Below, piece by piece: positions 7,890-59,304 of a stretch of DNA of 64,000 nt; position 1 is the first letter of the stretch; each line of letters opens with the position of its first letter. The DNA is from Leucoraja erinacea (lineage: Eukaryota). A program made the translations under genes and the position numbers. Location of the stretch: assembly GCF_028641065.1 (NCBI RefSeq), contig NC_073393.1, positions 36,146,001 to 36,210,000 on the forward strand, written 5' to 3'. The notes beneath the pieces were generated by a model. It saw only the letters and a program-made list of their open reading frames with translations, was not told the origin of the DNA and did no database searches.

Positions 7890-9100
7890 GATTCCTCTCA
7901 CCAAACTCATCACCAAGTTCCATGCCTGGAATAAAAAGGAACTGCAGATGCTGGTTTATGCCAAAGATAGACACAAAATGCTGGAGTAACTCAGTGGGTC
8001 AGGCAGCGTCTTTGGAGAAAATGGATAGGCGACGTTTTGGGTCGGGACCCTTCTTCAGGTATCCAATACCTATCAGTGACAATATCTCCTCCTCACTGAC
8101 CATTGATGCAAGTGCACCTCAAGGCTGTCTGCTTAGGCCACTGCCTTATTCTCTTTACACCCACAGCTCCAATGCCATCTACAAATTTGATGATGACACA
8201 GCAGTGGTTGGCCAAATCGCTGATTAAAGGAGAGCAATAGAGCATCTGGTTGAGTGGTGCTGAAACAACATCCACTCATTCGACATCAACAAAATCAAAG
8301 AACTAATCGTTGCCTTCTGAGGAAAAAGTCAGGAAATCACGTGCCAGCTTTCATAGGGAGGACAGTGCTGGAGAGAATTATCTGCTTCAACTTCCTGGGT
8401 TCTAACGTACACGATGACCTATCCTGGGCCCAGCATGTTGACATAGTCATGGAGAAGGCACACCAGCTGCACTTCTTTCCTAGACGTTTAAAGAGAATTG
8501 GTCTCGGAATACTCTTAAAAACATTTGCAGATGTTCTGTGGAAAGTATTCGGACTGGTTGCATCATGGCCTGGTGTGGCAATTCCAATGCACAAGATCCA
8601 AGAGGCTGCAGAGAGTGAGTGGTGCACTCAGCCTGGTCCAAAATGGGCACAGCCCTCTCCGCCATCAAAAGCATCTACAGGAGACGACATCAGGAAAGCG
8701 ACATCTATCATCAAGGAGCCCCACTATCCGAGCCATGCCCTCTCCTCACTGCCACCATAGAGCAGGAGGTACACTAACTTGAAGTCACACACCACCAGGT
8801 TTAGCAACAGCTACTTTCCCACAACTATCAAGTTCTTGACAATCCTGCGCAGCCCAAATCCTGCTTTGACAATGGAATACGGCAGATCACCTTTTACGCC
8901 TACTTGGACTTGGGATTTTTTCTAATTGGTTTGGCACTAATATCTTGTTTTCTGCACAATCTTTTTACAGTCTTGCAGAATTTTACATGTAATTTACGTA
9001 TAATTAATAGTTTGTGTGTTCGTCTGACTATATGTGTGGATGATGCTGCTGCAAGGAAGGTTTCCATTGTAAGTATACCTCACGTACTTGTGCATATAAC
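7890..9100 (+). mobile_element. Decayed Rex1/Babar LINE (RT domain to 3' UTR)
   Basis: APQGCLL.PL.YSLYTH, YKFDDDTAVVG, FLG...DDLSWAQH, SIIKEPHYPSHAL. Confidence 0.85.
7935..8058 (-). mobile_element. Penelope-like pLTR inserted in Rex1
   Basis: GGAACTGCAGATGCTGG...GGGTCGGGACCCTTCTTCAG. Confidence 0.8.
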
Positions 9101-11632: not shown

Positions 11633-12471
11633 AGGGCCTGTCCCACTTACGTGACCTGTACAGGCGACTGCCGGCACCTGTGATAGGTCGCCAAAATCTT
11701 CAACATGTTGAAAATTCAGCAGTGACCAGAAAGACGCTATGACTGTTTGGAGACGTCTCACGACCATAGGAGACCCCTCATGACTATACAGCCTGTATGG
11801 TCATGAGAGGTCGCCTTTGGTCGTCAGAGTCAGAGTCAGAGTCAATTTAATTGTCATTTGGACCCCTGGAGGTCCAAACGAAATGCCGTTTCTGCAGCCA
11901 TACAATTACACACAAATAGACCCCAGACACAACATAATTACATTTAACATAAACATCCATCACATAGCTGTGATGGAAGGCCAAATAAACGTATCTCTCC
12001 ACTGCACTCTCCCGCCCCCCGATGTCAGAGTCAAAGTCATAGCCCCCGGCTGGCGATGGCGATTGTCCCGCGGCCATTAAAGCCACGCCGGGTGGTGCGA
12101 GGTCGCACACCGGGTCTTGGTGTTAGAGCCCCCGGTGTGCGCTCGCAGAGTCCGCGGCCATTCCAGCCGCGCGGGGCAGTGGTGTCAGGCCCCGCTCCAG
12201 GAGCTCTTCAACCCCGCAACTCGGGCGGGAGAATTCGCCGTTGCAGGAGCCCTGAGAAGCGGTCTCCCTCCAGGGAGCCGTGGGCTCCCGGTGCCGTCGT
12301 CCACAGACCCGTCGTTGGAGCCTCCGGCTCTCCGGTAGCAGCAGCAGCAGCGCTCCAGCAGCAGCAGATCTCCAAAGAGTTGTAGCGTCTTTCCGTTCGC
12401 CGCTGAATTTTCAACATGTTCAATGGGTGCTGGCAGTCGCATGTAAAACTCGCGTAAGTGGGACAGGCCCT
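11633..12471. mobile_element. Non-autonomous PIF/Harbinger element
   Basis: TIR AGGGCCTGTCCCACTTAC / GTAAGTGGGACAGGCCCT; TAA TSD at 11630-11632 and 12472-12474; long internal inverted repeat. Confidence 0.9.
11826..12369 (-). mobile_element. GC-rich Rex1-tailed non-autonomous retroelement (copy B) nested in Harbinger
   Basis: Minus-strand tail CATTTCGTTTGGACCTCCAGGGGTCCAAATGACAATTAAA(TGACTC)n; shares the CCATCACAG hairpin with other copies. Confidence 0.7.
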
Positions 12472-13440
12472 TAAGGCCCCTCAAAGACTAAATTATACAT
12501 TGAAGCGTGGAGTACCAGGAGATGGGTGAGGCTTTCAATTAATATTCATCCTCGATTTTACTACAGAAAAAGACATGACGATAAAGGAACTTGGCAAAGT
12601 TAATGGATATCTTGGCGATAGTCCGCATTACAGCGGAGGAGGTGCTGGATGTCTTAAAACATATGAAGGTGGATAAATCTCTGGAGCCTGATCAAGTACA
12701 AACAAGAACTCGGGAAACTGAGATATATACATCATCATTAGCCACAGATGATGTGCCAAAGGTCTGGAGGGTGGCTGGCTCTGTGAGTTTACTTAAGAAG
12801 GGCTACAAGGAGAAAACCTGGAAATGTTAGACAAGTAAGCCTGACATCTGTGGTAGGTGCAATACTGGAAGGGGATCTGAGAGATAAGATATACATACAT
12901 TTTGAAATAAAATAGTTGTTAGGGATAATCAGCATGGTTTTGTACATGGGAAATTGTGACTCATGAATTTAATTTCAGATGATTGAAGAAATAACCAGGA
13001 AGGTTAATAAAGGCAGAATGGTAGATGTAGTCCATATGTGCTTCAGCAAGGCCTTTAATAAGCTCTACATGGGAGGTTACTCTGGAAGGTTAACCATGGG
13101 AAGCACGGGATCCAGGATTACATATTTGGTTTGATGGTAGGAACCGTATGTGTGATGGTGGAAGGTTGTTTTCCCGACTGGACTACTGGTGTTCCTCAGG
13201 GGCACATTGTCGTTTGTCAACAATCTGCATCAACAATTTGGGTGATAATGTACTAGAAATGATTAATACGTTTGTAGATAACACCACAATAGATAGCTAT
13301 CAAGAATTAGGCAGGATCTTGATCAGCTTGGTAAGTGGATCAAGGAGTGGGAAATGTCATTTAATTTAGATACATGGGAGATGTTGCCGTTTGAGAGGTC
13401 AATCCAGGGTAGGGCTTTTGCAGTGAACAGTAGGCCCCTG

Positions 13441-13727
13441 GAGTTCTCCCGAGTTCTCCCCTGATTCGAGCTCGTGTAGTGTACGTAGTGGGTACGTAGG
13501 AGTTCGTGGATGTCACGTAGCGAGTAGCGGTAGGTACTCGGGAAACTCGTGACGCTTTTTCAACACTGCAAAAAATGTCCACGAGTAAAAAAATGTCCAC
13601 GATGAAAAAAATTGTTACTTTTTACTCGTACGAGCCGCTACGTACCTGCTACGTACATTACACGAGCTCGAATCAGGGGAGAACTCGGGAGAACTCTTGA
13701 ATTACCTCGTACAGTGGGACAGGCCCT
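13441..13727. mobile_element. Harbinger-type MITE, left terminus lost
   Basis: Right TIR CAGTGGGACAGGCCCT plus TTA; ~48-bp inverted repeat 13441-13488 / 13649-13696. Confidence 0.75.
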
Positions 13728-13741
13728 TTAGGCCGAAGGGT

Positions 13742-14152
13742 CATAGAAACATAGAAAATAGGTGCAGGAGTAGGCCATTCGGCCCTTCGAGCCTGCACCG
13801 CCATTCAATATAATCATGGCTGATCATCCAACTCAGTATCCCATACCTGCCTTCTCTCCATACCCCCTGATCCCTTTAGCCACAAGGGCCACATCTAACT
13901 CCCTCTTAAATATAGCCAATGAACTGGCCTCAACTACCTTCTGTGGCAGAGAATTCCACAGATTCACCACTCTCTGTGTAAAAAATGATTTTCTCATCTC
14001 GGTCCTAAAAGACTTCCCTCTTATCCTTAAACTGTGACCCCTTGTTCTGGACTTCCCCAACATCGGGAATAATCCTCCTGCATCTAGCCTGTCCAACCCC
14101 TTAAGAATTTTGTAAGTTTCTATAAGATCTCCCCCCTCAATTTTCTAAATTC
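13742..14152 (-). mobile_element. Young CR1/HER1 LINE 3' end
   Basis: RTRGHSLRIRG...FFTQRVVNLWNSLP; (CATAGAAA)n tail. Confidence 0.9.
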
Positions 14153-14249
14153 TGTTTCAATATTGTATGTTGCCTTCACTCTATATAAAACAGTGGATAA
14201 AGTAGCATTGTTTGTTTGTCTTCTTTACAAGAATATTATATATTTTGGG

Positions 14250-15285
14250 TTTAGGTTTATTATTGTCACATGTATTAAGTTACAGTGAAAATCTTTGTTT
14301 TGCATTCTATCCAACCAAATCAGATAATACAATGCATAAATACAATCAAACCAAACTCAAGAACAATCGGTAGAGCAAAGGGAAGGATACAGAGAGCAGA
14401 ATAGATTTCTCAAAGTTGTAGCAAACCCGTTCCAGAAACACAGTCCAATGTCCACAACGTGGTAGAGATGAATCAAACAATACCCCAGCTTATGGAAGTA
14501 CCGTACAGAAGCCTGAGGGGAAGAAGCTGTTCTTGAGTCTGGTGTTGTGCATTTTCAAACCTAGATCTTCTGCCCAGTGGGAACAGGGAGAAGAAGGAAT
14601 GACTTTCTTATTTGATTAATCTTTAAAAGGTGTTGGTGTGCCTTGGCTGTCACTTCAACGTATTTGGTCCATGATAGATCAATGGTAATATTTACGCCTA
14701 GGAACATGAAGTTCTCAGCCATTCGGCACCATTAATGCTGCTAACTCGCTCTGATATCTTGCTGACATTGAGGGAGAGGTTATTGTCCTGACACCACATC
14801 GCTATGTTCTCTCTCTCATTGTACTCTGTCTCATCTGTGTTCTTGGTCAGTCTCACCACAGTGGTGTCATCTGCAAACTAGCAGATGGAGTTAAAGCCAA
14901 ATTTGGCCTCACACTCCTGAGTGCATGAGGAGTATTGTGGGGAACTGAGAATTCCGGGCATCATTGCGGGGTGTTGAGAATGATTGTGTTTCTGTGGGTG
15001 GGAAAGTCGAGAATCCAATGGCAAGAGGGGGGTGCTGATTCCCAGGTCCAACAGTTCAGAAATTAACTTGGATGGAATTATGGTGTTGAAGGTGGAGCTA
15101 TAGTGGATATGTCCTTGTTGTCTAGGTGTTGCAGAGATGGGTTTAGAGACAGGGAGATGGAGTACATCTGGACCTGTTGTGACAGTCGACAAGCTGTAGT
15201 GGATCAAGGCTGTCTGGGTGGCTTCACCAGTCTCTCAAAGCATTTCATGTTGGTGAATGTCAAAGCCACTGGACAGTAATCATTA
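14250..15285 (-). mobile_element. Decayed, internally deleted Rex1/Babar LINE
   Basis: Minus YSSTFNTIIPSKLISELLDLGISTPL, C*FADDTTVV; tail TGACAATAATAAACCTAAACC. Confidence 0.8.
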
Positions 15286-15449
15286 AAAGGCTTTTAACTA
15301 CACAATAATGCAATGCTATGATTTCCCTATCAGAATTTTCTTTGTTGATTAAACTTGTTTTATTTTATTACATTTATTGGCCAATGATTTATATGGATTC
15401 AATGATGCTACTGTTTATCATCATGTGAATCGGATTCCATGACTTTTTA

Positions 15450-16050
15450 TCATTTATTGGTTCACAGGGTATTAACTGCTGGCAAGGCTACCATTTCATA
15501 CTCTTTGATGGATCCTGTGTTATTGGGATATTTCATGCAACCTTTAAGAGTCACACATTGGTGGATCTGGCATCATTGGTTTTCTGAAAAAGGTAAGGAT
15601 TGCAGAGTATCCTACCCGAGGGAGATTAGTGGAATAACCCAGTGTGCAAATACTGGTTTAAACCGAATATAGGCACAAAATTGCGGAGGAATTCAGCGGG
15701 ACAGGCAGCATCTCTGGAGAAGAGGAATAGGTGATGTTTCGGGTCGAGACCCTTCTTCAGACTTGAGTTTGGTTTGATGGTATTTATGCATTGTATTATC
15801 TGATTTGGTTGGATAGAATGCAAAACTCGCAGTCTGAAGAAGGGTCTCGACCCGAAATGTCACCCATCCTTCTATCCAGAGAAGCTGCCTGACCCACTGA
15901 GTTACTCCAGCATTTTATGCATATTTCAGTGGACTAACCCAGCTGTTTTACAGTTGTTATTGCTGATATTAGTTACTAGGATTTAGGTTTGCAACTACCA
16001 TGGTGTGATTCACCTTCATATTTTATGATCAGTGTATGCTGGGCCAAATT
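15450..16050 (-). mobile_element. Old Deu-domain/SacSINE1-like SINE remnant
   Basis: Weak resemblance to GGCAGATTTCCTTCCCTAAAGGACATTAGTGAACCAG-type motif; hosts 15643-15927. Confidence 0.35.
15643..15927. mobile_element. Fold-back Penelope pLTR insertion with 15-bp TSD and captured spacer
   Basis: AGTGGA(A/C)TAACCCAG at 15628-15642 and 15928-15942; inverted pLTR arms around 15762-15830. Confidence 0.85.
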
Positions 16051-16087
16051 AATATTGAAGGTTCATTTTGACTATGATTTTAGATTT

Positions 16088-17266: not shown

Positions 17267-17730
17267 ACAAATTTACATATGAACTTTTACTGTCTGGTCC
17301 TTCACATCAGGTGATCGATGGGCGGCATGGACTTGGTGGGCCGAAGGGCCTGCTTCCATGCTGTATCTTTTAGTCACTCAATTCAGTCAATCAGCAAGTC
17401 CAATAAATCAGCCAGCCACATCCTCTTCTTTACTTTCATTAACAACAAAATAAATACACACAGAATCCTTTCCCAAAATCCAAACAAACTGTTTATTGTG
17501 GCTGATTTACTTGAGGAAACCTTAAGCTTCCTTAATACGCGCATGTAAATAAAGTAAAAATGAAGGCAAATAAACGTAGCTTTTTTAGGATAAAAAAATT
17601 AATACCAATAAAGAACAAATAAATAAAACATAAATGATGAAAGTAAAAAAGGATAATTAGATTAACAAACAAGCAAATCATCAATTCAATAAGAACGAGC
17701 AAAGATAAAATGGTATAATAACTACTATGT
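17267..17730 (+). repeat. Direct repeat copy 1 (~464 bp) left of L1
   Basis: About 98% identical by eye to 18968-19433. Confidence 0.95.
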
Positions 17731-18967: not shown

Positions 18968-19433
18968 ACAAATTTACATATGAACTTTTACTGTCTGGTC
19001 CTTCACATCAGGTGATCGATGGGCGGCATGGACTTGGTGGGCCAAAGGGCCTGCTTCCATGCTGTATCTTTTAGTCACTCAATTCAGTCCATCAGCAAGT
19101 CCAATAAATCAGCCAGCCAAATCCTCTTCTTTCCTTTCATTAACAACAAAATAAATACACACAGAATCCTTTCCCAAAATCCGAACAAACTGTTTATTGT
19201 GGCTGATATACTTGAGGAAACCTTAAGCTTCCTTAATACGCGCATGTAAATAAAGTAAAAATGAAGGCAAATAAACGTAGCTTTTTGTAGGATAAAAAAA
19301 TTAATACCAATAAAGAACAAATAAATAAAACATAAATGATGAAAGTAAAAAAAGGATAATTAGATTAACAAACAAGCAAATCATCAATTCAATAAGAACG
19401 AGCAAAGATAAAATGGTATAATAACTACTATGT
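18968..19433 (+). repeat. Direct repeat copy 2 (~466 bp) right of L1
   Basis: Starts immediately after the L1 A-tail; matches 17267-17730. Confidence 0.95.
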
Positions 19434-26518: not shown

Positions 26519-26722
26519 TAGGTAGGAACTGCAGATGCGGATTTAAACCGGTTAGACACAATATGTAGGAGTAACAGCGGAACAGGCAGCATCTCTGGAG
26601 AGAAGGAAGGTGTGACATTTCATTAGTCTGAAGAAGGGTCTCGACCCGAAACGTCACCCCTCCCTTCTCTCCAGAGATGCTGCCTGTCCCGCTGAGTTAC
26701 TTGGGCATTTTGTGTCTATCTT
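26519..26722. mobile_element. Fold-back Penelope pLTR insertion with 15-bp TSD
   Basis: TGGATGAATAATCTA at 26504-26518 and 26723-26737; inverted arms. Confidence 0.85.
26625..26660 (+). ncRNA. Minimal hammerhead ribozyme motif (Penelope type)
   Basis: CTGAAGA-A-GGGTC(TC)GACCC-GAAA-CGTC with palindromic ACGT helix III. Confidence 0.7.
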
Positions 26723-31793: not shown

Positions 31794-33556
31794 AGAAATG
31801 GTGCAGAGATACAAGTTCAGCCATGAATGTGAATGGAGCAGGTTCAAAGGGATGGGTGGCCTTTCTGTTCTTTTTCCTTGCATTTTTTTTCATAACTTCA
31901 ACTTCATATTAATTCATTCAGACTCCAGAATCTTCCGCCTTGCTGAAGACTCATTTAAAGCACTTATTTAGTTCCTCGGCCAAGTTTTCCACCTCCATAA
32001 GTACATTTCCTTCCCATCTATAATCAGCCCACCTCTCGTTTCACAATCCTTTTCTTCTTTACACACCTGTAGACTATTGTTGGACTTCTTGTTCTGTTTG
32101 CAGCCAGTCTTTTCTTGTGTTCTCTTTTTTTGCCTATTTTGTTTCCTTTTATGAAACTTTATGAACCCCTATGAACTTTACATAATAAACCTGGTTCTCA
32201 CTTGTGTTAACAACTTGCCATCTGTCAAATGCTCATTTTTTCAACTCTATTTTACCATAAATTCTTACGAGTATTTTCAGCTCTTTCCCAGATTGGAAAC
32301 CATTTACAATTCAGAGTTCCGCTTGCAACTTAATGAAACCATCACAAAAATTGGGAAGTCATCTTTTAAGATGTTGAAACACTGGTTTTGCAAATAAAAA
32401 GCATTATATATTTTAACTACTTTTTTTCATTTTCACCTGTGATGTTTCATAGGTTTTTGGGGAGTTTCTAAAAAACTCAAGTAAATTCAATAATAATTGT
32501 TATTAATGTTATTATGCCCTAATTAAATTCTTACTTGCAAATTCTGCAGAGAGTTTTGTTTTACTGTGAGGTAGAAATTGGAGAACACAACATTTTTGCA
32601 CTTTCTTTGTACAATTATCTCAGGCGGGTTATAATAATCGATATAAATCCGTAAATAAGTAAAACCAGGCACTGATGTGATAAGAAAAATACCAGATGGG
32701 ATATACTGAAAAATAATCCCAATACCTTTGCTTTTAGGTTATAAGGGTGACCTCTAGTGTACAGTAATGTTCTCAGTAGACTGCATTATACACTATAACA
32801 GAAATACAATTATATAAATTCTTCTACTGTGTGGAAGCACACAGTTCGAGCTGGGAAACACATTTGTTTAACTCCAATTTATTAAACATAAACTGAATTT
32901 TTAAAGGCGGTCCCGTGCAGAAGTGATGGAGGCAGGTTTCATGGTGATGTTGGAAATGGAATTGGATTAATATACGGGGAAGAAATATCTGCAACGCTGC
33001 AGAAAGAAGGTCAGGGTACAGCTAGTGAGATGAACTGATTGAGAGCTTTCTCAATATGATGGGCCAAATGGCCTCCTTCTGTGCTGCAACCTTACTATGA
33101 TGATAAGTAGAACAAGTGCTGTCTCTGCTTTGTGCCGACTCACTTAAAATGCAATAATTTTAATAAAAGGGGATATGGTTTATATGTTAGTCCTAATGCA
33201 ATCTTTCACTTGTAATTTTGAAAGTCCATTTATTTTAAATAACCATTAATTCCAAGTATAATCAACAAAAACATAGTCACTCAATGATGAATAAATGTCG
33301 TTTTTTCTTTAGGAACTGTGGTTCCCGATGATTGTGTTTTCCTCTTGTCACAGTTGCCTCTGATATTTGTCAAGGCTTGAAGAGGGTGGGGATATAATGG
33401 CGGTGACCTTTGGGGGTAAGGATTTTCTGGTGACCCTGCAAGCCTCACTTGTTTCCCACAGATTGAGAAGTACTTGACCACAAGTGGGAAGTGAAAAGGG
33501 CAGAGCAGGTCAGAAGAGTGAATGTGGAAGAGCATTGTGGGCTGGGATTTGATTGA

Positions 33557-34058: not shown

Positions 34059-34254
34059 CAGTCAGGTTCTGGAACTATTGTTAGAAGGTTGGAGGGGTTG
34101 TGAGGAATGGGAAGGAAGACATTGTAAAATCTGTCCATCTTCCAGTCCACCAGATATAACAGACAACGGAGCAGCTTATGTTTAAGTTTAATTTTAAAAC
34201 ATTAATAGGACCATTGCCAACTCCTGCCCTTGTCCTGCCTGTCCTTTTAAAAAG

Positions 34255-34378
34255 AAAAGTCTCAACCTAAAACATCACCCATTCCTCCTATCCGGAGATG
34301 CTGCCTGTCCTGTTGAGTTACTCCAGCATTTTGTGTGTATCTTCAGTGTAAACCAGCATCTGCAGTTCCTTCCTATCC
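34255..34378 (+). mobile_element. Penelope-like pLTR with tail
   Basis: GATGCTGCCTGTCC...AAACCAGCATCTGCAGTTCCTTCCTA. Confidence 0.75.
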
Positions 34379-34386
34379 ATTTAAAA

Positions 34387-34496
34387 CTAGACTAAGTGGG
34401 ACCCGTTGGGTCCCAGCATCACACAGAAGGGCTGGTCACTTTTCACTTCCCACTTGTGGTCAAGGGGGGATGGGAGAGGGGGGGAGGGGGGGGGGG

Positions 34497-43941: not shown

Positions 43942-44422
43942 GTCAGACTGTTTCCTGGGATGTCAGGACTGTCTTATGAAGAAAGACTGGATAGACTTGG
44001 TTTATACTCTCTAGAATTTAGAAGATTGAGAGGGGATCTTATAGAAACTTACAAAATTCTTAAGGGGTTGGACAGGCTAGATTCAGGAAGATTGTTCCTG
44101 ATGTTGGGGAAATCCAGGACAAGGGGTCACAGCTTAAGGATAAGGGGGAAATCCTTTAAAACCGAGATGAGGAGAACTTTTTTCACACAGAGAGTGGTGA
44201 ATCTCTGGAACTCTCTGCCACAGAGGGTAGTTGAGGCCAGTTCATTGGCTATATTTAAGAGGGAGTTAGATGTGGCCCTTGTGGCTAAGGGGATCAGGAG
44301 GTATGGAGAGAAGGCAGGTACGGGATACTGAGTTAGATGATCAGCCATGATCATATTGAATGGCGGTGCAGGCTCGAAGGGCCGAATGGCCTACTCCTGC
44401 ACCTAATTTCTATGTTTCTATG
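43942..44422 (+). mobile_element. Young CR1/HER1 LINE 3' end with open ORF2 frame
   Basis: LSYEERLDRLGLYSLEFRRLRGDLIETYKIL...; (TTTCTATG)2 tail. Confidence 0.92.
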
Positions 44423-44647
44423 TCATTAATTAATTGGTTGTTATTTAAAAGATAGATGGAGGTTTTCAATAAATCTAAGAAAATAAGGCATGAGGAAAAT
44501 TATTTGAGTACTTATTATCAATCATGATATCTTTAGTAAAAGTTTGAGATGCAGCATTTTAAAATCTGCCACATCTAAGTGGCTGGCATTCAGAGTCAGT
44601 GGGGAACAACACTGAGGGTGGGGCCAGGCCAACACTTTAGAGTTTAG

Positions 44648-44891
44648 ATGGTAGGAAAGAACTGCAGATGCTGGTTTAATTCGACGATAGACACAACATG
44701 CTGGAGTAACTCAGCGGGACAGGCAGAATCTTTGTAGAGAAGGAATGGGTGATGTTTCAGGTCAAGACTGTTCTTCAGACTGAAGAAGTCGGAATCAGAC
44801 TGAAGAAGGGTCTCGACCCAAAACAGCACCCGTTCCTTCTCTCCAGAGATGCCGCCTATCCCGTTGAGTTACTCCAGCATTTTGTGTCGTT
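44648..44891. mobile_element. Fold-back Penelope pLTR insertion with 13-bp TSD
   Basis: CTTTAGAGTTTAG at 44635-44647 and 44892-44904; inverted arms. Confidence 0.85.
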
Positions 44892-50873: not shown

Positions 50874-53298
50874 TTACGTTTCATAACATATTCCTGGTTT
50901 CTATATGTTGTATAGCCCCACCATATGAAGAAGATGCTAAACTGACTGTAATCTGTGTACAATTGGCAATGGACACTAAATATTTCAAACTCCCTAGTGC
51001 CTATAATATCGAAGATGCAAAGATCTAGGGTCCTTAACCCATCTAAAAAGTGGTGGGAATTATACTGCATGTTGACAAATCGATTCAAAAATCAGATAAT
51101 AATCTGCTTAAATAGAAGCCAGCAGATCATCTGTATTTAGTGAACAGCTGACTGAAGCAGCCTTAAGTATCCATCAGAGGTTTGTGCTGTTAACAACTTG
51201 GGAAGGGGGAGAATTTGGCCTGCTTTCTTCTACTCTGAGGACATTACAAATAGGTAAAAGGGATGGCCATCACTCCTTGGCACTCAGCATCCCAGGCAAA
51301 CAGCTAATAGAACCAAATAGATTTTAACAAGGGCTTTAAGTCAGTGTTATTAATGTGTTATAAGCGGCACCTTTGTAATAGAATTAACCGATGATAACAA
51401 GTGGTTAGTGCCATTTAATAAATAAGTAACTTCTAGAGATAAGCATGGACAATGTTTGTAGAGACTGTATCCCAATCTAAACTATTCTGTATATTTGGGT
51501 AAAATGTTTTATTCAAGGTGGATGTATATTATATCAGTATTAATAATGGGGTTCAAACATATGAATCATTTAGCTTCATACAGAATTAGTACGGCAGTAG
51601 GTGAATAACACAGAAGGCAGATGGCACATGCGTTAGATTATGTTTCTTTGACACAAAGATGCATTTAGTACCAGAGCAGCAATGTAGGAAAGTTGTAGTT
51701 CCAAATGTCTGTCATCCACATCCAAATCAAAATAATGCCAATGGCCGGTGTGCCTTCACATTCATTATTTTTTTTCCACATGAAGTGCTTTGGATCTGGT
51801 CCCTTGTGAACTCTATCCTCTAATGTATGCTGACCTTTAGACAGAACTTTATGGAGTTTGCATATTACTGCAAGGTCTCTGCAGATTTGGTGGTTATAAT
51901 CCAAAACCCAGTTATAGGCCTCAGAGGAGTGAAATTAAATTTTGGGGGCCTTTGTACTTGGCAGACAGCAGAATTTTTTTTTACACCATGAAGCATATAG
52001 CAGTTCTCATAGTTTTCACAACAACTTCTGTTTTCATTTATTCCTAAATGAAGAACATCAGAAAGACTTTGAGAAAAACTGAGGAGAAATAGACCTTGAC
52101 AGAAATACATTAGCTACGCACACAAGAGCTGATCATTTTTCCCCAAATAATTAGGTTAATATGTGTAAGGAATGCTTCATTTTTTTTTTCAAATGAATAG
52201 GGAATATGTTTTGGCAACAATGAGATTTTAATGCCTTTTCAGTACCTATTAGCTCCGTCTATCTGTTCTTGCTTTAGCAGTCCCTTTGATCAGCTAAGCT
52301 TAGGAGAATAAATAACTTCAACATGAGGCACAAAGGTACAGTTTCATTTAGCACTGGGAAAAGGGCCAGGGGAAAAGTGGGTTCTTAATACTATAATTGT
52401 TCTCTTTTTAAATACTGGCAGGCCCTGATTTCCACTCGAGTCAGTCTGCTGTTAAGAATTCAGAGCAAAAATGTGTTGTAACTGCATGTTGACCTTTTAC
52501 CGGTTTAATGATATAAAGATTAAAGTGCCCGTGGCTTAATTTACATACCAGTCCGATACAGGATGCATGGATATGGGGATGTGAAATTAATGGAGACCAG
52601 GTGTTTGAAACAGGAGCTTGCATTCAGCTTACTCATATGTTCCTTCTGCTTCAGATCTGGCTGTGCCACATAAATATAATCCTCCTAGATTGTCCAAATC
52701 CTTTCTTAACCAGAATAGAATAATTTTGGCAACCAAAGCACAGCAGAATAAAACCATTTGCTTTATCTTTCCTATATCGTCCGCTCTTTAGGATTTGGCA
52801 GTGAAAACTAAATTGTAAAGCCCAGTTGTATTACATGTGTCGCTGCATATACAGTAGTTGTGGTTTGTCAAGGCCTATCCTTCAAAACGGAACTACTGCT
52901 AAAGTTTGAACACGGTTCAATTCTGATAAGATCAATTCACTTTTGCCAAACTAAATTTATATTTAAGAGGAAAAGGATCATTGTTGCAGATGAAATTAGA
53001 TTTAAAATAACAGGCTGGACTATCGAAATACATTTGTTTATAGTAGAGCAGTATAGGCCTTCACATAGTTGAAAGTTTGTAATTAACAAGTGGATAAGAG
53101 TAATAGTCACCCTCACTAATAAACCACTGTAATGGTGCCACAGCACAGTGTCAGCTGGTTAGTCCAAACAACCCCCAGTGTCAGATTCTACTATTAAAGG
53201 AAAGAAAATGATTATGATCAGAATGTATTAAGTAAATCTGCGGGAATAACTAATGTACGCTAATGATCGACTTTATATTTAAGTTAAATTAAGTTTCT

Positions 53299-53681
53299 TA
53301 TAGAAACTTACAAAATTCTTAAGGGGTTGGACAGGCTAGATGCAGGAAGATTGTTCCCGATGTTGGGGAAGTCCAGGACAAGGGGTCACAGCTTAAGGAT
53401 AAGGGGGAAATCCTTTAAAACCGAGATGAGGAGAACTTTTTTCACACAGAGAGTGGTGAATCTCTGGAACTCTCTGCCACAGAGGGTAGTTGAGGCCAGT
53501 TCATGGGCTATATTTAAGAGGGAGTTAGATGTGGCCCTTGTGGCCAAGGGGATCAGAGGGTATGGAGAGAAGGCAGGTACGGGATACTGAGTTGGATGAT
53601 CAGCCATGATCATATTGAATGGCGGTGCAGGCTCGAAGGGCCGAATGGCCTACTCCTGCACCTAATTTCTATGTTTCTATG
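53299..53681 (+). mobile_element. Young CR1/HER1 LINE 3' end
   Basis: Nearly identical to 44038-44422. Confidence 0.92.
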
Positions 53682-54355
53682 TTTTTAAACCAGAAAAAGC
53701 TGTAAAGTTGGCATCTTGTCCCTTCTGCCAGAGGACATATTTGTTATTCTCTCCTAGTCCAAGACAATGGTATCCCAGTTGCAGTACCCAGTAGCTACAG
53801 GATAGTATTGCACAACTTATTTACCCAGATTTTCACTTGCAAACGGACACCAAGATTTGTGACCACTTCTTTTGACAGGCTCTGCCTGTAGAAAAAACAC
53901 TTTTAACCAACATAGAGGCTAGTCAATGAACAACAGTCACACTGTTTTAATATTGCAGCAATCATTTTTATAAACACCCACACTTACTATCTAATGGTTT
54001 ATGCTGTATATGGAGTACTGACCATATCATTCATCCATGTTTTCATTTGATTGCCTAATGAAATATCATTAGCATTAATTTTGTATGGTTTATTGTTCTG
54101 TTTTGAATTATTTCACTTTTGAAAAAGTACCTGAAATAGCTGTGCAAGGTGTTTGACCTGTTACATTAAGTGTTAATGAGTTCTGTGTGAAGAAATGATT
54201 TAGTTGCATGAAACATTGTGGGTAATAAACGACATCATCACTCCTTAAAAAAAGATGGCGAGTTTTTGGACTGCATTTGTTCAGCTCACCTGCAAAATGG
54301 AAAATCATTCTTGGTGCCTTCCTTTCAAAGTTGACACAAGCAGTAAATACATAAT

Positions 54356-55030: not shown

Positions 55031-55471
55031 TAGGCTTAGCAATCGTTTCGCTCAACATCTCCGCTCAGTTCGCAATAACCAACCTGATCTCCCGGTGGTT
55101 CAGCACTGCACCTCCTCCTCCCATTCCGAGTCCGACCTTTCTGTTCTGGGCCTCCTACATGGCTAGAGAGAGGCCCAGTGCAAATTGGAGGAACAGCACC
55201 TTATATTTTGCTTGGGTAGTGTACACCCCAGCGGTATGAACATTGATTTCCCCAATTTCAGGTAGTCCTTGCTTTCTCCCTCCTTTCCCTCCCCTTCCCA
55301 GCTCTCCCACAAGCCTGTCTCCACCTCTTCCTTTCTTTTTCCCGCATCTTTTTCCCCCCCCCCCCCCCGACATCAGTCTGAAGAAGGGTCCCGACCCGAA
55401 ACGTCACCTATTCTTTCTCTCCATAGATGCTGCCTCACCCGCAGAGTTTCTCCAGCATTTTTGTCTACCTT
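55031..55471 (+). mobile_element. Penelope-like element 3' end (GIY-YIG domain C-terminus plus pLTR)
   Basis: RFAQHLRSVRNNQPDLPVVQH...DLSVLGLLH...KLEEQHLIFCLGSVHPSGMNIDF. Confidence 0.85.
55375..55410 (+). ncRNA. Minimal hammerhead ribozyme motif
   Basis: CTGAAGA-A-GGGTC(CC)GACCC-GAAA-CGTC; predicted cleavage after C55405. Confidence 0.7.
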
Positions 55472-58218: not shown

Positions 58219-58665
58219 GTAGGAAGGAACTGCAGATGCTGGTTTAAACCGAAGATAGACACAAAATGCTGGGCTAACTCAGCGGGACAGGCAGCATCTC
58301 TGGAGAGAAGGAATGGGTGACGTTTCGGGTCGAGACCCTTCTTCAGACTGAGGTCAGGGGAGAGGGAGATACATAGATAAGGAAGTGTAAGGTGTGAAAA
58401 CAGGACAAAGGGAATGGAGATCAGGGAAAATGTAGAATAGATCATGGTTAGCTGGGAGAAGGTAACAACAAAGCAAACAGAATGGTTGGAGAACTGGGAG
58501 AGGGGTGGGATGGAGGGAGAAGGAAAGCAAGGGTTATGTGAAGTTAGAGAAGTCAATGTACATACCGTTGGGGTGTAAACTGCCCAAGCGTAATATGAGG
58601 TGCTGTTCCTCCAATTTGCGCTGGGCCTCACTCTGACAATGGAGGAGGCCCAGGACAGAAAGGTC
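58219..58665 (-). mobile_element. Young Penelope-like element 3' end
   Basis: Minus DLSVLGLLHCQSEAQRKLEEQHLILRLGSLHPNGM; complete pLTR and tail. Confidence 0.88.
58314..58349 (-). ncRNA. Minimal hammerhead ribozyme motif
   Basis: Minus AGT-CTGAAGA-A-GGGTC(TC)GACCC-GAAA-CGTC-ACCCA. Confidence 0.7.
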
Positions 58666-59304
58666 GATCTGGGTATCTCACCATTGAAATGACCTACGTT
58701 TCACTAATCAAACCTCAGAAACTGGTTCTCCGGGCAAAATGTCTGATGTTTATGCATGACAATAAAACAGCCGGCCTGAGCTCAAGGGAACTTTAAATGT
58801 TGCCAGTGTTTGGAGACAACCTTTAACCAGCACCTCTGACACCAAGCTAAGCACAGGCTGCCCAAGTGAGTGGCATTGCTTTGAAAATCCACCTTTATCT
58901 TGGCTAGATAACTATCAATGCAGATATTATCACCGGGAGAAATAACCATCGATGCAGATAATATCACTGCGAGGATAGTACAGCATAATCCACACAGATG
59001 ATGTGTCTTTTTTCATCGCGAGCACACAAAAATATTTCACCCTCACTGTTTCTAGGTCACTTTAAAACAATGTTAAAAAATTGTCACTTGATACGCAAAA
59101 GCTTTATGTCATTCTTCGAGTAGTTGTATAACTTTTCATAAAGAGTCTTCTGCCAAAGCTATATGCTGGTTCCCAGAGAAATCGCTTAGCCCAGGAAATG
59201 AATGTTAGTTCCACTGCAGTGAGATAGGACCCACAATGTTGTTTTCATTGTCAAGGTACGCTTTGCATAACTAAAAATAAGGTGAAATCCAGCTCAGTAG
59301 AAAA

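Follow-up and report, generated by a model that had tools for sequence, protein, structure and literature searches.

The insertion at 15643-15927 consists of two inverted Penelope arms that are held apart by a short spacer, and it raises the question of where this spacer came from and how it was placed between the arms. The locus was analysed within a window of 64,000 nucleotides (64 kb) of DNA from Leucoraja erinacea, and all positions given below are those of this window.

The fold-back insertion and its arms

As shown in Table 1, the insertion is composed of two head-to-head, 5'-truncated pieces of a Penelope pLTR with their 3' ends outward. The preliminary description had placed the whole insertion inside a 15-bp TSD; the TSD is present and is imperfect at one position. 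Inverted and 5'-truncated copies, a tail of 30-40 bp on one end and a TSD, by which passages of PMC3846280 and PMC8557442 define such insertions, were all found here.

About 20 pieces of this pLTR family were identified in the 64-kb window. Longer copies of the same pLTR (55050-55470 and 58231-58680) adjoin the end of an ORF that was 71% identical to its best match, protein P0001 of Leucoraja erinacea. P0001 carries a cysteine pair before the YIG motif and matched PF01541 weakly (E 0.0013, below the Pfam cut-off), and for protein P0002 the first-ranked Atlas assignment was GIY-YIG, at 0.95. Two cysteines between GIY and YIG mark the endonucleases of Penelope-like elements (PLEs), as stated in part of PMC8557442. 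The ORF end lies beyond the short arms at 15643-15927, and the endonuclease link comes from the longer copies; their predicted GIY-YIG features support the assignment of the arms to an EN+ PLE of the Penelope/Poseidon type. A direct Pfam scan of the PLE ORF end returned no useful match, and no RT-bearing Penelope copy was identified in the 64-kb window. A hammerhead-like core was read by eye at about 15834-15861 in the right arm, with the core motifs and a 5-bp stem II at 15834-15857, while Rfam at its gathering score gave no hits and the MFE fold did not form a hammerhead. Searches for the pLTR motif and for spaced fold-backs in metagenome, viral and prokaryotic genome collections found 0 loci, as expected for a vertebrate repeat.

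The two arms are approximately 83% alike, differing at 16 of 97 aligned sites, and their inner 27 bp form the sole perfectly inverted stretch. Both arms end 1-6 bases from the usual cDNA join point with nothing deleted, and the element at 15643-15927 folds with a z of -15.6. Four TSD-flanked pLTR fold-backs were found in the 64 kb, located at 724-855, 15643-15927, 26519-26722 and 44648-44891. All four carry the tail on one arm only, and thus each outer end resembles a point at which the RT began. The preliminary description had proposed two oppositely primed cDNAs, a reading that agrees with this anatomy and with what a Poseidon protein did in vitro in PMC11167929, where the purified Anolis protein cleaved and extended both strands from two internal start sites defining the tail.

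The TSDs of the four fold-backs matched at 14/15, 15/15, 13/13 and 14/14 positions (1 of 57 sites differing), while their arms differed at 16/97, 9/69, 15/94 and 4/24 sites, respectively (13-17%). The contrast was significant when the higher MAFFT counts of three arm pairs were compared with the TSDs (62/292 vs 1/57, p = 1 × 10^-4), with the fourth pair left out and with the TSDs chosen as the best scoring, which inflates the contrast. Within the right arm, a stretch of 33 bp is an exact match to the copy at 7975-8007, and in the same stretch the left arm has the alternative bases of the copy at 58231, which is overall the nearest copy of both arms. The simplest reading of arm divergence next to near-perfect TSDs suggests that two different RNAs may have served as templates for the two arms; alternatives to two RNAs would be the loss of near-perfect palindromes or error-prone synthesis. 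The arms lie 13-14% from the pLTR consensus of the window, and since the TSDs are near-perfect in all four fold-backs while the arms differ, the arms seem not to be a clock.

The region in which arms usually join (58341-58351, and the same region in most pLTR copies) is self-complementary at 8 of 9 positions and lies beside the ribozyme-like core. It is a predicted built-in annealing site for two cDNA ends, and a self-complementary stop region would explain the many spacer-less joints. Contigs of four runs contained more than 2500 distinct joints of pLTR centres, which shows that this junction is frequently made anew. The best supported of them were spacer-less, at or near 15757-15764 to 15830-15833, and 800 joint rows carried extra letters between the arms, so filler at the fold-back centre is common. 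One joint, from 15753 to 15832, had nine fixed letters and depths of about 2440 and 232 in runs X1 and X17, respectively, and was absent among the joints listed for X3 and X19. This nine-letter centre looks like that of a fold-back multiplied as a single unit or within some other repeat.

The spacer and its source

The spacer at 15762-15826 was compared with the reverse complement of 14297-14361, and 64 of 65 bases were identical, so both the coordinates and the count of the preliminary description were correct. The lone mismatch is 15779/14344, 1400 nt lie between the two copies, and the end of the donor is 1266 bp from the TSD. The exact core of the match is 47 bp; apart from the arms of a hairpin element, it is the only exact inverted match of at least 30 bp at less than 2 kb spacing in the 64-kb window. 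The hairpin element (13441-13696) is MITE-like: its inverted arms of 67 bp are 91% alike, it contains a tandem pair of 18 bp, and a terminal motif beside it recurs at 12457-12478.

The description of this match as a 65-bp spacer between the arms was accurate for the match and needs correction for its length, as the outer two bases at each end are also pLTR arm sequence. The filler proper is 61 bp (65 bp with both microhomologies), with a microhomology of 2 nt at each junction. The left one becomes 3 nt if the donor once had the family base at 14362, where the family majority base differs from the donor in 88-91% of the depth. The right one was called from a loose-end consensus behind 15763 in four runs, with an agreement of only 0.34-0.36. 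By our estimate, a pair of 2-nt microhomologies would occur by chance a few times in 100. The inverted orientation relative to the donor and the microhomology at both junctions are features of locally templated insertions (MMB-TI or TMEJ type). The search definition of MMB-TI in the accessible part of PMC8421209 places the template within about 100 bp of the break, and the donor lies outside that range.

Table 1. Positions of the features of the fold-back insertion and of its donor in the window.
Feature	Position	Strand	Evidence or remark
TSD, left copy	15628..15642	+	14/15 to 15928-15942
Left arm, 5'-truncated pLTR, 3' end outward, most of the optional tail	15643..15763	-	alignment with the other pLTR pieces of the window
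Microhomology, left arm end/donor	15762..15763	+	2 nt
Templated filler	15764..15824	+	61 bp, inverted relative to donor
Microhomology, donor/expected continuation of right arm	15825..15826	+	2 nt, loose-end consensus
Right arm, 5'-truncated pLTR, 3' end outward, no tail	15825..15927	+	alignment with the other pLTR pieces of the window
TSD, right copy	15928..15942	+	14/15 to left copy
Donor of the spacer	14297..14361	+	64/65 inverted match; family-minority bases at 14331 and 14334
Decayed LINE-type non-LTR retrotransposon with RT remnant and 3' UTR, holding the donor	14255..15293, ends approximate	-	broken RT motifs

The broken RT motifs of the LINE that holds the donor are spread over all three minus frames. 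A 59-aa piece encoded at 14701-14877 gave 90 protein matches, of which by our count 71 carried PF00078 (RVT_1) and 14 carried PF09004. Direct Pfam scans of the donor frames gave no RT match, and none of the 90 matches was named Rex1. The earlier claim that the donor is the 3' UTR of a heavily decayed Rex1 copy was thus borne out for a decayed, minus-strand LINE-type 3' UTR. The element is provisionally termed Rex1/Babar-like, a group in which a non-LTR RT of the fish type is followed by PF09004; this name comes from its motifs and the pairing of domains, not from a library match. The reverse direction of copying, with the spacer as the source and the LINE UTR as the copy, was ruled out by contigs of the LINE family, which are collinear with the window over 14244-14413. 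Young LINE 3' fragments, 93-97% alike and far younger than the donor LINE, are located at 13742-14153, 44013-44429 and 53296-53688. A direct local duplication of 466 bp (17267-17730 and 18968-19433, 98% identity, 1.7 kb apart) lies at the edges of a LINE remnant.

To place the spacer within the donor family, contigs from four publicly available runs (organisms A, B, F and G, of four studies) were aligned to 14150-16070 at likeness 82, a setting that gave the family alleles and drowned the orthologous spacer. The donor family is abundant, with a summed depth of about 10^5 over the donor vs about 20 on unique flanks in X1, a figure that is not a copy number. At 14334, 86-89% of the family depth has a base other than that of the donor. 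At the corresponding spacer position, 15789, another base was found in 92-96% of the family depth, and at 15792 (donor 14331) in 82-85%; the spacer has the donor base at both sites, in comparison with all four runs. These two diagnostic sites come from 40 of 195 difference rows, and at each of them 4-18% of the family depth shares the donor base, consistent with a putative donor-like subfamily that exists or may exist within the LINE family.

Among the contigs listed, 18 non-orthologous copies showed 447 differences to the donor region over 2621 sites, 13-19% each with a mean of 17%. They come from 32 listed of more than 486,897 contigs, the longest matches rather than the best, after 14 locus or ortholog rows were left out. 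The probability of at most one mismatch in 65 is 8 × 10^-5 at 17% divergence and 9 × 10^-3 at 10%, compared with 0.35-0.84 at the 1.1-3.4% that separate the window from its orthologs. No second close copy of the donor UTR was found in the 64-kb window, and a single contig of organism B spans the donor without a break, differing at 4 positions over 212 bp. The shared minority bases and the divergence of the listed copies make a local source of the spacer very probable, as judged from these alignments.

Local templating, as proposed in the preliminary description, is therefore supported by shared minority bases at the two readable sites and by listed distant copies that are 13-19% off the donor. 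It would have been weakened by distant copies that match equally well or by a spacer that recurs as a fixed subfamily feature. No equal match was seen among the copies listed, which mostly have other bases at the diagnostic sites, and thousands of pLTR ends enter unrelated sequence or join without a spacer. The depth drops from about 10^7 on the arms to about 5 × 10^3 at 15789, nearly all of it with the family base. The non-majority depth at 15789 is 198-548, compared with about 10-45 for single-copy sequence and millions for the arms, and the reading in which the spacer is fixed within a large subfamily was rejected.

Age of the insertion and probable capture of the spacer

The insertion is common to three other organisms. 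Contigs from B, F and G cross its left junction and extend 43, 42 and 34 bp into the arm, respectively. The right junction was bridged in B (31 bp) and reached by 6 bp in F, and G had no cover there, which carries no weight as an absence. The flanks of B, F and G differed from the window at 20/1303, 12/1065 and 36/1046 sites, respectively. The spacer/donor difference of 1/65 is compatible with that of the TSD (1/15, p = 0.34) and with the split from G (36/1046, p = 0.72), while the spacer is far closer to its donor than the arms are to each other (19/98, p = 4 × 10^-4). No arm-spacer junction was present among the contigs listed in any run, so the assembly of the window is the one place where the spacer is confirmed. 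Donor contigs start at 14332, 14324 and 14260; these starts are uninformative on the spacer, as contigs can also be broken or joined by repeats of the family and by clean-up during assembly.

We slightly favour a capture of the spacer at integration, while two cDNA ends were being joined. A protein of the Penelope/Poseidon type would cut both strands 15 nt apart and prime reverse transcription from both 3' overhangs. One cDNA would start at the distal start site, which gives the tail, and the other at the proximal one, probably on two different pLTR RNAs. Both would stop just past the ribozyme core, where such pairs would usually anneal through the near-palindrome TCAGACTGA; here they would not have been joined directly. 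The 5' strand of the left flank would have been resected by more than 1.3 kb, and the left cDNA end would have snapped back on the exposed plus strand through the 2-3 nt match at 14360-14362. A polymerase would then have copied about 63 nt, the new end would have annealed to the right cDNA through 2 nt, and fill-in would have restored the flank and kept the TSD. The enzyme that made the filler would more probably be an end-joining polymerase of the host, for instance Pol theta, than the RT. What remains is a scar of repair, inert and with no likely function.

The orientation of the spacer is consistent with this course of events. If the left cDNA was extended, the donor plus strand would be the template; this is the strand that 5' resection of the left end would leave single, and the copy would be inverted, as observed. 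Where donor and primer lie on the same side, an inverted copy fits snap-back on a resected end as modelled in portions of PMC11724301 and PMC8421209. In yeast, long resection suppressed fold-back in the results given in a portion of PMC11724301, which counts against a long-resection geometry. Other points also weigh against capture at integration: it is a single event, its orientation would arise one time in two by chance under any model, and microhomologies of two bases are weak evidence. If the arms were taken as a clock, the spacer would be much younger than the arms, which would favour a later repair.

Such a later repair, unlinked to retrotransposition, is an unlikely but serious competitor. 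The element would have been a spacer-less fold-back with a perfect central palindrome of about 54 bp, and its hairpin would later have been cut and patched by microhomology-mediated local copying. The perfectly inverted inner 27 bp, the folding of the element and the spacer/donor divergence far below that of the arms are all in line with this. The amplified nine-letter centre in X1 also points this way, as some fold-backs may move as units with no open centre at insertion. Repair of cut hairpins often trims the arms, whereas here the arms end next to the usual join point with nothing deleted. The age argument for a later repair is countered by the near-perfect TSDs of all four fold-backs, by which arm divergence is no age, and the age of the spacer fits the TSD and the species split. 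A further point for later repair is a similar inverted filler of kilobase range in a non-Penelope repeat. This second filler, at 34439-34464, is a copy of 33473-33498 (26/26 identical, 940 bp apart, flanked by a 6-nt direct repeat), and it sits in a different repeat that starts next to the solo pLTR at 34252-34385. Its presence in a repeat without a fold-back suggests that general host repair makes such patches here.

A jump of the Penelope RT to a nascent local RNA, either a read-through of the plus strand (left cDNA) or a LINE-sense transcript (right cDNA), appears improbable. It would need no long resection, and with two primers either orientation could arise. The ORF2p of L1 moves from one RNA to another and builds additional cDNAs into the internal junction (reported in parts of PMC11702581 and PMC13174262), and template jumps have been proposed for rotifer Penelope in a section of PMC3846280. 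On the other hand, both switch points would be internal to the template, about 40 nt from the LINE 3' end instead of at the end of an RNA. The donor LINE has also decayed heavily, and no RT is at hand for the second filler of the window. Nor did a host exon come to light: the 150 longest of 208 non-repeat ORFs gave 0 non-RT Pfam hits and a crude splice scan showed no convincing spliced exon, both of which probe transcription weakly. What looked like an exon at about 15469-15593 was set aside, since one translated frame has stops, organism B has a 2-nt loss at 15516 and the ORF had no Pfam hit. The preliminary description had allowed either chromosomal DNA or a nascent transcript as the template for the fill; a local template is supported, and for the transcript no sign of a host gene appeared in these weak tests.

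A distant source, in which another member of the LINE family was copied from RNA or DNA and the neighbour resembles it by chance, by membership in a close subfamily or through gene conversion between inverted copies, is very improbable. The family is abundant and part of it shares the donor base at each diagnostic site, and 15761 matches the family majority at 14362 and not the donor, although 15761 is also the pLTR base. This explanation needs the neighbour to be there by chance (one close copy within 64 kb) in addition to the near identity (8 × 10^-5 to 9 × 10^-3). The unbroken contig of organism B through the donor argues against near-identical copies elsewhere, with the caveat that assembly clean-up can hide branches. 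Least credible of all is an artefact, a double template-switch amplification chimera that bridged the palindrome in the assembly or library: palindrome centres are hard to sequence, such chimeras are often inverted and local, and the spacer junctions were absent among the 32 contigs listed of more than 486,897 (an absence that means nothing), but the one spacer/donor mismatch would be unexpected in a fresh chimera unless the site was heterozygous, and the outer junctions of the insertion are real in other runs.

Significance and comparison with known systems

The formation of inverted Penelope structures is stated as an open question in passages of PMC8557442 and PMC11167929. Provided that it arose together with the insertion, a local filler from kilobases away is hard to obtain from a self-primed hairpin and easy to obtain from two free cDNA ends. 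A tentative generalisation, which we hold to be possible and rather doubtful, is that fold-backs are made by two protein-RNA units, each of which copies a different pLTR transcript from one of two opposite nicks; the break between the cDNA ends would stay open and resectable and would regularly capture inverted chromosomal DNA from up to kilobases away. If true, skate-like genomes would hold thousands of dated fossil junctions by which the end of PLE integration could be tested against the self-priming model. Spacer distance, orientation, arm origin and the mismatch between arms and TSDs would provide a cheap genome-wide test of how PLE integration ends. The single event described here belongs to a type of repair scar that has already been described for L1 and at double-strand breaks, and its value is that of a lead.

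Local filler at L1 and capture between rotifer pLTRs are already known, and no report of a kilobase-distant local donor for Penelope was found in the sources as far as they were available. Our literature search likewise found no locally copied loop with a kilobase-distant donor in a Penelope fold-back, with thin coverage of subscription and older Penelope papers. The inverted pLTR insertions of Penelope/Poseidon elements in the available text of PMC3846280, PMC8557442 and PMC11167929 have the same anatomy, with head-to-head 5'-truncated copies, a tail on one end and a single TSD. In rotifer Penelope, unrelated stretches of sequence were taken up between solo pLTRs inside TSDs, and Pen1 has spacers of host DNA (part of PMC3846280). 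In that part of the study no donor was traced near the insertion, whereas here the donor is 1.3 kb away. The same source favours self-priming on an antisense template for its hairpins, while the arms here look like the products of two RNAs.

Insertions of L1 share with this locus a short non-element piece copied from nearby genomic DNA into a TPRT insertion. In tumours, 22 templated insertions of less than 250 bp were described, typically templated within 15 bp of the site (10.1101/2024.08.27.596794, in part), and in cell lines three insertions with nearby genomic templates were ascribed to break-end processing (PMC11702581, in part). The distances in the supplementary figures of both L1 studies, including Fig. 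S10 of PMC11702581, could include cases of kilobase range. The L1 events involve an APE-type enzyme and are somatic or experimental, whereas here the element is a GIY-YIG PLE and the insertion is germline and common to related organisms; the L1 templates are close to the site, whereas here the template is 1.3 kb away and the filler lies between two 3'-primed arms. In L1 twin priming both nicks also prime, and the cDNAs are joined by microhomology or end joining with the TSD kept. In twin priming a single RNA is used and the inverted pieces do not overlap, while at this locus the two arms are copies of one pLTR region, begin at fixed start sites and are 16% apart. L1 insertions that join two opposite cDNAs from two RNAs have also been described in a portion of PMC11702581.

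MMBIR/MMB-TI, SD-MMEJ/TMEJ snap-back and the fold-back inversions of yeast, as presented in parts of PMC8421209 and PMC11724301, give the same inverted nearby copy with short junction microhomology. Most published fillers come from a closer template, within 100 bp by search definition (PMC8421209, in part) and within tens of bases in yeast (PMC11724301, in part). At such break sites the template is usually within about 100 bp, whereas at this locus the distance is 1.3 kb and a retroelement cDNA provides the primer end.
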